Assembly (NCBI GenBank): GCA_034435375.1
Contig: DAOTXR010000073.1
Location: 231,480-295,479, forward strand
Source: Anaerolineae bacterium
GTDB taxonomy: Bacteria; Chloroflexota; Anaerolineae; Aggregatilineales; UBA3940
DNA: 64,000 nucleotides
Direction of reading: 5' to 3'
Shown here: positions 7,710-29,949 of the stretch, in pieces
How the letters are laid out: each line of letters starts with the position of its first letter
Numbering within the stretch: the stretch's first letter is position 1
Position numbers and translations under genes: made by a program
The notes under the pieces: model-generated
What the model saw: the letters and a program-made list of their open reading frames with translations, nothing else
Told to the model about the DNA's origin: nothing
The model's database searches: none

Positions 7710-7800
7710 GCTTCTATTGTACCTGTTGACTGAGGGGTTGGCCTGAAATAGTTCCGAGACCTTTTCAGGCCAGGTGGTCTGATCTGTTCTCAGCCAAACG

Positions 7801-7839
7801 CTTAACTTACTCTTAACAAAAGGCTAAACCATGCTTAAT
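7801..7839 (+). promoter_or_regulatory. PHO-box-like array of four 11-bp-spaced direct repeats
   Basis: CTTAAC (7801), CTTAAC (7812), GCTAAA (7823), CTTAAT (7834) upstream of pstS; the 11-nt period is typical of PhoB/OmpR-family sites. Confidence 0.75.
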
Positions 7840-7895
7840 CTGCTGTGGATACGTTTAGTGGCGAAACTCAACAAAATGAGAGGAGAAGATTTTCA

Positions 7896-27606: not shown

Positions 27607-28059
27607 TCACTCTCCACTGGCGCGAGACAGAGCCGGCTCAAAGGCAGTGATACGCTCGCGCCAGACATCGGGAATTGGGATTGAGGTGTTGCGAGAGTAG
27701 TCATACGCAACCTGTACAGTCATCCCCAAGGCAGCGATCTCCGGCGGTTGGTCGCGCCGCTGACGGGTGAGGACATACTCAAAGTCAAAGCTCTTGTGCC
27801 CCAGGCGTGCCGTGCGCAGATAGAGACGCACCTCATCTCCCCATACCAAGGGCAGCAGATAGTCGCAGGTAGCGCGGGCGACGATCACACCAAAGTCATG
27901 CCAGCCACCGCTCCAGCCCACCACCTGGGCGAAGTAGTGAACGCGGGCTGTCTCCATGTAGGTGAAGTAGGTGACGTTGTTGACATGCTGCAAAGCGTCG
28001 ATGTCAGCGTAGCGCAGCTCAACAGGACAGGAGAAGCGAAAAAGCGACAAATCGGGCAT
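27607..28059 (-). CDS. Acyl-CoA thioesterase (hotdog fold, YbgC/FadM-like)
   Basis: LRYADIDALQHVNNVTYFTYMETAR; GAGG RBS before MPDL. Confidence 0.9.
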   Translation of the reverse strand: MPDLSLFRFSCPVELRYADIDALQHVNNVTYFTYMETARVHYFAQVVGWSGGWHDFGVIVARATCDYLLPLVWGDEVRLYLRTARLGHKSFDFEYVLTRQRRDQPPEIAALGMTVQVAYDYSRNTSIPIPDVWRERITAFEPALSRASGE

Positions 28060-28189
28060 GAAATTTCCTCGGAATGCCTGTATAGTCAGTGAAAGGCTGG
28101 TGCAGGAGATTGTAACACACCTTGCCAACGCGGTGAGTGGAAAGAGCGGCTTGCGGATGGATGGCCGCCTGATGCAGACGGGGGAACAG

Positions 28190-28753
28190 ATGATGAGCCA
28201 AGATGTGCAGGCATGGCTGAGGGATGTAGAGGATCGCGACTGGACAGTGCGTAGCGAGGCAATCCGGCGGCTGGAGGTGATGGGGGACCCGGCAGCAGCG
28301 CCGGGGCTGATCCGGATGCTAAGGGACGAGAGCCAGTATGTGCGAGCTGCCGCCGCGCGGGCGCTGGGGAAGCTGAAGAGCGCCGAGTCAGTGCCAGCTC
28401 TGATCGCCGCGATGGACGACAAGGCGTTCATCGTTCAGCAGAGCGCCATGTGGGCCTTGGGGGATATCGGCCCGGCGGCGAAAGATGCGCTCCCCGTGTT
28501 GCGCGGCAGAGCCGAGGACCCGACGTGCTACAAAGAGCGCATTGAGCTGACGGTGGGACAGGTAGCTCGCCTGGCCATCTCGCGCATTGAGGCCGAACCA
28601 GAGCCAGTGGCCGAGGCTCTACCTGCCAGCGGGGTCCCTGCCTCTGCTGCTGAGGCGCAGACACAGCGCGTGCTGACTCCAGAGGAGCGCAAGGCCAAGC
28701 GCGAAGCAGCCCTGGCCCGCAAACGCGCCCAGGAAGGGGGAGCATCGGTCTGA
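28190..28753 (+). CDS. HEAT-repeat (PBS lyase-like) protein
   Basis: Three repeats of the type D-x-x-x-x-VR-x-x-AA-x-ALG (WTVRSEAIRRLE, QYVRAAAARALG, FIVQQSAMWALG). Confidence 0.8.
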   Translation: MMSQDVQAWLRDVEDRDWTVRSEAIRRLEVMGDPAAAPGLIRMLRDESQYVRAAAARALGKLKSAESVPALIAAMDDKAFIVQQSAMWALGDIGPAAKDALPVLRGRAEDPTCYKERIELTVGQVARLAISRIEAEPEPVAEALPASGVPASAAEAQTQRVLTPEERKAKREAALARKRAQEGGASV

Positions 28754-28823
28754 CGCCATGCCCAGGGCACATTGTTAAGAGATTGTAATCGCAATGCGGG
28801 TGAACAGGTGGTATGATCGGGCT

Positions 28824-29019
28824 GGTTCGTGAGCGCTTTCACGATCTTCACCTTCACAACCCAACCCGTGACGTCACATCGATCTTCGACCTGAACGCCT
28901 GAACATCCACATCATCGACATCGACAACGCCCTCAGCGCCTATCCTCACCTAAGACGCCGACCGACAGAAGCGCTCAACACCACCCTGGACCGCGACACC
29001 CGTCGCGGTCCTGTTTTTT
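28824..29019 (+). ncRNA. Candidate stand-alone small RNA of about 195 nt
   Basis: Extended -10 TGGTATGAT (28809-28817), 9-bp end-pairing TGAGCGCTT (28830-38) with AAGCGCTCA (28969-77), G-poor interior, intrinsic terminator. No Rfam family recognised. Confidence 0.45.
28988..29019 (+). terminator. Intrinsic terminator
   Basis: GGACCGCGAC-ACCC-GTCGCGGTCC followed by TGTTTTTT. Confidence 0.85.
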
Positions 29020-29121
29020 ACCCGGCAAGGAGACTCTCTGGTACACTGTGGACAGCAGTGAAGGTCTTTTTGGGAGATCCAAAACGCTGACAGGGCTGCG
29101 GTCAGCCTGGGCACAGCATAT

Positions 29122-29949
29122 TTGAGGCCGCTTGTGAGGTTGTTATTCGATCCAGACTTTGACGACTGCCAGTGGACCGACGCCTGGCTCCACATGCCGG
29201 TGATCCAGGTGGTGCCAGGTCTCTACGGGCCGTTCAGCGTCAAAAGCTGGCAGATGGCTGAAGCGGACATCTGCGGGCAGCGAGTGGCGCTGGAGCCACC
29301 CCTGGAAGTGCGTGGGCTGATGACAGCCGAGGGCCGGCTGTGGATGTCAGACGTGCCGCAAGAACGGCTGATGATGTTCAACAACGCCCAAGCCACGCGG
29401 GGCCGGGTGCTGGTGGGTGGGCTGGGGTTAGGACTGTATCCACAGTACGCGCTGCCACGCGCCAGCCGGATAACCATCGTGGAACGCGAGGCCATGCTGA
29501 CAGAAGTAGTCGAGCCAGTGGTGCGGATCGCAGCAGAGGCAATTGGGGTGCCAGTTGAAATCCGGTTAGGAGACATTGAAGATACATTGCAGGCTGAACC
29601 TACCGACCGCTTCGACACGATCTTCCTGGACACATGGGACACACTCGACGCGGCGCACCTGCCACACATCAACCGGATGCGCGACCTGGCGCTGCGCCAT
29701 CTGTCGCCGGAGGGGCGCGTGCTGTTGTGGGGCTACCGCTGGATGGTGCGGCTGTTCGAGAGCGCGTGCGAACACCTGCTCCGGATCGAGCCGGGAGAAC
29801 GGCACAACTGGCTGCGGATCATGACGCGACAGCGACCTGCGGTGTGGCATTTGCTGCTGCCAGTGGTGGAGCACTTCGCTGGGCTGGCGGTGGAGGACAT
29901 GGGGCCGGCGCTGGCGTGGTGCCGGGAATATGTGACGAGGGTATCCTAG
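29122..29949 (+). CDS. Class I SAM-dependent methyltransferase / spermidine-synthase-like fold protein (start uncertain)
   Basis: RVLVGGLGLG motif I, ITIVERE, GDIED, FDTIFLDTW. Confidence 0.7.
   Translation: MRPLVRLLFDPDFDDCQWTDAWLHMPVIQVVPGLYGPFSVKSWQMAEADICGQRVALEPPLEVRGLMTAEGRLWMSDVPQERLMMFNNAQATRGRVLVGGLGLGLYPQYALPRASRITIVEREAMLTEVVEPVVRIAAEAIGVPVEIRLGDIEDTLQAEPTDRFDTIFLDTWDTLDAAHLPHINRMRDLALRHLSPEGRVLLWGYRWMVRLFESACEHLLRIEPGERHNWLRIMTRQRPAVWHLLLPVVEHFAGLAVEDMGPALAWCREYVTRVS

Follow-up and report, generated by a model that had tools for sequence, protein, structure and literature searches.

Between a HEAT-repeat gene (28058-28753) and a gene resembling SAM-methyltransferases, here called MT (29134..29949, plus strand), the genome of an uncultured member of the Anaerolineae carries an element at positions 28772-29019. 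Positions refer to the window, the whole 64-kb stretch of DNA that was analysed, which belongs to genome G000 (95% complete); the element is single-copy in this genome. At its upstream end are two 11-bp-phased direct repeats, TTGTTAAGAGA and TTGTAATCGCA (28772..28794, plus strand), in which TTGTTAA (28772-78) and TTGTAA (28783-88) are spaced 11 bp from start to start and the proximal box overlaps the -35 position; together they are a candidate site for a response regulator of the OmpR/PhoB type. An extended -10 element, TGGTATGAT (28809..28817, plus strand), predicts a transcription start at about 28823-28826. The 5' strand of a closing helix, UGAGCGCUU (28830..28838, plus strand), is matched by a 3' strand, AAGCGCUCA (28969..28977, plus strand), so that TGAGCGCTT (28830-38) and AAGCGCTCA (28969-77) are exact reverse complements of each other. 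The 130-nt loop that they enclose (28839..28968, plus strand) is G-depleted, C/A-rich and mostly unpaired, with repeats of CAUCGA, UUCAC, CUGAAC and YCGAC (on the DNA, TTCAC three times, CATCGA three times and CTGAAC twice) and a stretch resembling an anti-Shine-Dalgarno (anti-SD) sequence, CCTATCCTCACCT. The element ends with an intrinsic terminator (28988..29019, plus strand), the predicted 3' end of the RNA, which consists of a G+C-rich hairpin at 28988-29011 (ten pairs, eight of them G-C, with a 4-nt loop) followed by TGTTTTTT, which supplies a run of U6. Every feature listed in a first-pass annotation of this DNA was found in place.

The plus strand folds with z = -3.8, and both the closing helix and the terminator are present in its minimum-energy structure (RNAfold). 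The minus strand was considered as the RNA strand and was rejected despite its lower folding z-score, because the T-run and the promoter elements are on the plus strand only. The whole window has no match in Rfam 15 at gathering thresholds; with permissive filters the sole match is P10, on the opposite strand, at 12 bits (gathering score 37, E = 7.3). Judged from sequence comparison, the segment 28772-29019 very likely encodes a real, separately transcribed non-coding RNA with a predicted length of about 195 nt, and this RNA very likely represents an undescribed family of the Anaerolineae (Chloroflexota), absent from Rfam.

The gene downstream is unclassified: the MT proteins, 271-275 amino acids long, belong to no Pfam or NCBIfam family, resemble class I SAM-methyltransferases and spermidine synthases, and in some sources are named as class I SAM-dependent methyltransferase or spermidine synthase. 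In the window the longest reading frame of MT begins at TTG 29122, and a promoter-like sequence, TGGTACACT (29040..29048, plus strand), is separate from the promoter of the RNA. The corresponding sequence TG(C/G)TACACT is located 6-7 nt before the MT start codon (ATG or GTG) in most relatives, with or without the element (L007, L009, L011, L018, L119). Because this distance is so short, the MT mRNA appears to be leaderless in most relatives. G000 itself has about 75 extra bases between the TACACT box and the conserved FDP codons, which hold an open reading frame of 25 codons (29048-29125) whose TGA stop overlaps TTG 29122. At three more distant MT loci (L144, L074, L146), about ten tandem repeats of GCTGACTC/GTTGACTC replace the spacer, 10-100 nt upstream of MT and immediately before its promoter.

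Distribution of the element among the Anaerolineae

When 40 relatives were searched by DNA similarity, the copy in G000 itself was the only match. The family was recovered by inspecting the DNA upstream of MT orthologues, and now has ten members, which represent five lineages within a single family of the Anaerolineae (G000, G002, G020, L114, L115, L117, L119, L129, L137 and G014). Five of these form the g3 clade, which belongs to a genus other than that of G000 and consists of genomes G002 and G020 and metagenome contigs L114, L115 and L117. L119 is a contig of an NCBI metagenome-assembled genome with the same order of thioesterase gene, HEAT gene, element and MT as in G000, and L129 is its metagenomic sister; L137 represents a much deeper lineage, with an MT protein only 55% identical. 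Every member is located directly upstream of the promoter of MT and is co-oriented with it. The MT proteins of the carrier lineages are only 55-72% identical, yet the boxes, the register of the helix, the depletion of G in the loop and the terminator are all retained.

Covariance models connect the subfamilies to one another. Model R1, built from G002 and G020, finds the element of the window as its sole match in the window (21.5 bits), and model R2, built from L119, L129 and L137, finds the window element with 21.9 bits and L117 with 20.8 bits. Among 151 genomes of the order, the best match of R2 was a new member, G014, which is located between a HEAT gene and an MT operon and represents the fifth lineage. 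R2 is a noisy model: the other full-length top matches that were inspected proved to be antisense to acidic low-complexity genes, or other coding sequence. The novelty proposed in the first-pass annotation, which had named Infernal and covariation analysis among its checks, is supported by the lack of an Rfam match and by models that detect each other's subfamilies, within the one order that the model searches covered. G000 contains no paralogue; other G-poor stretches exist in this genome, none of them with the same helix and terminator.

Most relatives lack the element, and in these the HEAT gene and MT are 0-200 nt apart. A tree of MT proteins shows carriers interspersed with non-carriers of the same family. 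Because of this scattered distribution and the short HEAT-MT spacers of the non-carriers, the element may be read as an ancestral one that was lost several times.

Promoter architecture and predicted RNA structure

The direct repeats upstream of the -10 element conform to the pattern TGTWA-N6-TGTWA, which occurs once in the 64-kb window compared with an expected 0.06 occurrences. The whole genome contains 14 occurrences, several of them at ordinary promoters, from which no regulon emerged. The TGTWA boxes start 28 and 39 nt upstream of the -10 hexamer in G000 and G014; the five g3 sequences all share these two positions and have a third box that starts at 50 nt; in L119 and L129 they are found one helical turn (11 nt) further upstream. 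The -10 hexamer is TATGAT, TATCCT, TATGCT or TATTCT, and precedes the 5' strand of the helix by 10-14 nt in all members. OmpR/PhoB-type sites are laid out as direct repeats of 6-7 bp that recur about every 11 bp and border on or overlap the -35 position. Other lineages have the boxes at the same distances from the -10 box, which supports the earlier proposal that they are a candidate binding site of this type. G000 encodes at least eight OmpR-family regulators. One of these, an orphan regulator encoded near the element, shows no linkage to it in G002, G020 or G014; in G002 and G020 its orthologue is on another contig.

A resemblance to the pst box had also been pointed out, in that the reverse strand of the boxes contains CTTAAC. 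Four 11-bp-phased boxes of the CTTAAC type do precede pstS at 7800-7850 of the window, and one of these has TTGTTAAG, box one of the RNA promoter, as its reverse complement. The likeness extends to this one box in G000 only, in the opposite orientation, and TGTWAY, the consensus of the family, is not that of the pst box. No clear comparison with the RNA boxes came from the pst promoters of G002.

The closing helix has 7-9 bp in every member, with its 5' strand at the predicted 5' end of the RNA and its 3' strand 1-10 nt before the terminator. Because MAFFT failed to align the 3' strand and the terminator across subfamilies, the helix columns were tabulated by hand-anchoring. Compensatory changes were found in four columns among the five lineages of one order (column 1, U-A/G-C; column 5, C-G/U-A; column 8, U-A/G-C/U.G; column 9, U-A/A-U), together with two wobble changes and one mismatch between lineages. 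The helix and the terminator are part of the minimum-energy fold in all nine members that were folded, and the strands of G014 pair in register. In G000, a helix of this length between the 5' end and the segment before the terminator arose in 0.1% of shuffles, and the same test applied to each sequence gave P values from 0.001 to 0.24. The covariation that the first-pass annotation had proposed to look for was found in five lineages, and it supports the closing helix, short of statistical proof. A strand-specific T-run follows the terminator hairpin in G000 and most homologues, and is broken or weak in L117, L119, L129 and L137. No pairing alternative to the terminator is apparent in the folds, as the first-pass annotation had noted for the element. 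With its conserved promoter architecture, covarying closing helix and lack of a conserved open reading frame, the element retains the character first ascribed to it, that of a free-standing non-coding unit with its own promoter and terminator.

Between the strands of the helix, composition and short motifs are kept rather than sequence, and the interior diverges fast. G makes up 14.6% and C 41% of the G000 loop, compared with 29.8% G for the genome, and only 0.07% of strand-specific 130-nt windows of that genome are as poor in G. Across the ten members, loop length ranges from 110 to 135 nt, G content from 8% to 18% and C content from 32% to 42%. CATCG occurs three times in the G000 loop where 0.2 occurrences are expected. 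In counts summed over six sequences for the five lineages, which are homologous and not independent, and compared with mononucleotide shuffles, CATCG (9 versus 0.9), TCGA (14 versus 2.3), TCACC (14 versus 2.3) and CATCA (10 versus 1.6) are 6-10 times over-represented, and YCAY occurs 40 times versus 25.7. The exact hexamer CAUYGC is not enriched in the loops (1 versus 0.5), and a search of the G000 genome for RNAs dense in CAUYGC found none. Many of the G residues in the loops belong to YCGAC motifs, a tendency that is clearest in G000 and L137. The positions of the motifs shift between lineages, as does their order: UUCACCUUCAC and CCUGAACAUC are swapped between G000 and L137.

Longer conserved blocks are restricted in their distribution. 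The five g3 sequences all carry an unchanged 18-nt block of the loop, AAGACCACACAAUCGCGA, while differing in the loop centre; this block is not conserved in the other lineages, and no block is common to all of them. Exact-word scans of the species genomes recovered the g3 block from no genomes but G002 and G020, apart from a single 19-mer match due to chance; a 15-mer, AACATCACCATCATC, proved non-specific. A looser core, (G/A)AACAUC(A)CCAUCA, is common to G000, L119, L137, G014 and L114. Inside the invariant block of G002 and L117 (loop positions approximately 26-35) is a perfect 10-nt palindrome, AAUCGCGAUU; G020, L114 and L115 keep nine nucleotides, AAUCGCGAU, at this site, and G000 has AUCGAU at a similar place. 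The palindrome could be a site of RNA dimerization or a DNA operator.

The open reading frames in the loops are unrelated between lineages. G002, G020 and L115 have none of eight or more codons, and a mini-frame, AUG-AGC-GCY-UGA, is the only one in the loops of G020, L114 and L115. Single-base indels shift the frames within g3, and an indel of one nucleotide between the nearly identical L119 and L129 changes the whole peptide.

Possible functions of the RNA

The reading tentatively preferred is that of a trans-acting RNA under the control of a response regulator, with the G-poor single-stranded loop serving as a multivalent landing pad for a protein. A response regulator that reads the upstream TGTWA boxes would set the amount of the RNA, the 5' end of which would pair with the segment just before the terminator and so close a loop of 110-135 nt. 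Kept almost free of G, and therefore single-stranded, the loop might act in trans by binding a protein that recognizes short C/A-rich motifs (YCGAC, CAUCG, CAYCA, UCACC), either titrating or scaffolding it. The shuffling of motifs between lineages favours such a sponge, because sponge RNAs tolerate shuffling better than sRNAs that depend on a seed. The invariant 18-nt block of g3 argues against it, in that it resembles a base-pairing seed or one specific site more than a field of repeated motifs.

By analogy, the RNA would work most like a sponge of the CsrB/CrcZ type, yet its motifs, its potential partner proteins and its Rfam scores place it outside those families. With CsrB, CsrC and RsmX-Y-Z it would share the plan of a terminator-ended non-coding RNA under two-component control, with many short unpaired motifs that drift in number and position between species, all of this being predicted here. 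Whereas CsrB and the Rsm RNAs display GGA in many hairpin loops, the Anaerolineae element has C/A-rich motifs in one large G-free loop; GGA occurs 0-2 times and ANGGA not at all per loop in all ten members. The Hfq/Crc sponges of Pseudomonas (CrcZ, CrcY and CrcX) are closer in being unstructured and G-poor, with A/C-rich motifs and a promoter of the response-regulator type, but the element described here is roughly half as long, contains no AANAANAA motifs and has no Rfam match. Neither Hfq (PF17209) nor CsrA (PF02599) was found in G000, and for CsrA the control genomes gave matches. The first-pass annotation had named CsrB and CrcZ as precedents; with neither a CsrA nor an Hfq gene found in G000, and no arrays of GGA or AANAANAA in the element, the element is not a member of either family.

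Nearly as likely as a protein-binding RNA is a base-pairing sRNA independent of Hfq, a possibility in which one or a few conserved C-rich segments of the loop would base-pair with G-rich stretches of mRNAs from other loci, for example their ribosome-binding regions, so as to activate or repress these mRNAs. The single-stranded 18-nt block, invariant in g3 where the rest of the loop diverges, would be a suitable seed, as would the core that is common to G000, L119, L137, G014 and L114, and the C-rich loops are complementary by composition to purine-rich SD sites. The loops of L119 (L119:1400-1420) and L129 contain CACCUCCUUCUAG, which is nearly identical to the 3' tail of the G000 16S rRNA, CACCUCCUUUCUAG (contig C5), with one U fewer. 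The anti-SD-like stretch to which the first-pass annotation drew attention is present, but the loops pair with the SD consensus no better than composition-preserving shuffles do (P 0.02-0.5). Extended complementarity was not found in the G000 genome, nor does the g3 block, which the other lineages do not conserve, have a complementary site in the genomes of G002 and G020 beyond its own locus. A seed, moreover, has no need of a G-free stretch of more than 100 nt.

C-rich sRNAs that act without Hfq are known from other phyla, among them RsaE/RoxS of the Firmicutes and Yfr1 of cyanobacteria, in which an unpaired ACUCCUCACAC is located between stems. In these RNAs the seed is short, highly conserved and located in small loops. 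The element resembles them in its unpaired C-rich sequence able to pair with G-rich ribosome-binding sites, its intrinsic terminator and its lack of dependence on Hfq, and differs in being G-depleted over more than 100 nt, in having no block common to all lineages and no CCCC runs, and in anti-SD pairing that does not exceed what composition predicts. The likeness is one of composition only.

The position of the element, adjacent to and co-oriented with the MT gene or operon in all five lineages, is what would be expected of a cis-acting leader or attenuator, which would allow conditional read-through into MT, either past the terminator or past a Rho-dependent stop loaded on the C-rich loop. 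The loops have the composition of a Rho utilization (rut) site, with C far above G and 18-35 YC dinucleotides per loop, and Rho is encoded in G000; the assignment is one of composition and of the presence of Rho. The resemblance to rut sites, which are unstructured for some 80-130 nt and rich in YC dinucleotides, is offset by context: rut sites are part of a longer transcript and precede a Rho-dependent stop, whereas a helix closes the loop described here and a strong intrinsic terminator comes directly after it. Such a leader is nevertheless unlikely. A conserved promoter-like TG(C/G)TACACT separates the terminator from the MT start, and orthologues without the element have this box too. There the start codon follows it by 6-7 nt and has no SD sequence, so that RNA reading through into MT would be translated poorly. 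No specific pairing of the loop with the 5' region of MT was detected, and the features of leader-peptide attenuators of the his, thr or trp type were not found: there is no conserved reading frame that could encode a leader peptide and no apparent antiterminator, and a promoter-like box stands before MT.

It is also improbable that the element has no separate function, being either a long 3' untranslated region (UTR) of the HEAT gene or neutral intergenic DNA in which the helix and the composition are incidental. The rapid divergence of the interior and the absence of the element from most relatives are compatible with such an origin, as is the lack of a terminator between the HEAT stop codon (28753) and the element in G000, where the same RNA could additionally be made by read-through as the 3' UTR of the HEAT gene. 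Against this, a terminator of the HEAT gene itself precedes the boxes in L119, L129 and L137, and the gene upstream of the element is divergently transcribed in g3 and is khpA in G014. Because of these arrangements, the element needs its own promoter in four of the five lineages, which excludes the notion, raised with the first description as the finding that would undo it, that the region is only the 3' UTR of the HEAT gene. Neutral DNA would also be hard to reconcile with boxes, helix register, G depletion and terminator that persist where MT identity has fallen to 55-72%.

Far less probable still is a small-protein gene. The Thr/Phe-rich frame of 21 codons from GTG 28829 (28829-28894), offered earlier as an alternative for the element, exists but is not conserved. 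A CAY-rich stretch in every member, from CACCAUCAC (G002, L117) to CACCAUCACCACCAC (G020), provides a run of His in one frame (CAYCAY) that would act as a leader peptide; this frame lacks a start codon and is broken in L115. The peptides are unrelated, some members have none, and indels shift the frame between close relatives.

If the preferred reading of a protein-binding RNA is followed, proteins with KH domains of the KhpA/KhpB type are the leading candidate partners, because Hfq and CsrA were not found. The presence of Rho and KhpA, the khpA gene beside the RNA in G014 and the C-rich ligand of Thermus KhpB, detailed below, count in favour of this reading. A wider and rather doubtful proposal is that the element is one of a class of decoy RNAs with G-free loops in Chloroflexota that lack Hfq and CsrA, titrating either KhpA/KhpB or, through a loop that mimics a rut site, Rho. 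Were this the case, such RNAs would place global post-transcriptional control or transcription termination under a two-component system.

Chloroflexota are abundant in sediments and wastewater sludge, and to our knowledge their riboregulation is almost unexplored. The genome examined here has no detectable genes for two of the best-studied protein partners of sRNAs, Hfq and CsrA. A family defined by regulator boxes, a panhandle between the 5' and 3' ends, a G-depleted loop and a terminator offers a concrete RNA with which protein partners (KhpA/KhpB, Rho) or mRNA partners could be found, and the conserved promoter boxes offer a handle on one two-component regulon. If the RNA is only an ordinary, lineage-restricted sRNA, what is gained is one more family for the catalogue and a corrected annotation of the HEAT-MT interval.

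Both Rho and KhpA are encoded in G000. A recent preprint (bioRxiv 10.64898/2026.10.12.757534) refers to a structure of KhpB from Thermus with a C-rich 10-mer bound. G000 and G002 have one khpA match each, away from the element. G014, the single case in which khpA adjoins the RNA gene, has one copy of khpA elsewhere and a second khpA-type KH-domain gene (PF13083, 84 amino acids) at L196:1126-1380 (G014:C73), between the HEAT gene and the RNA gene.
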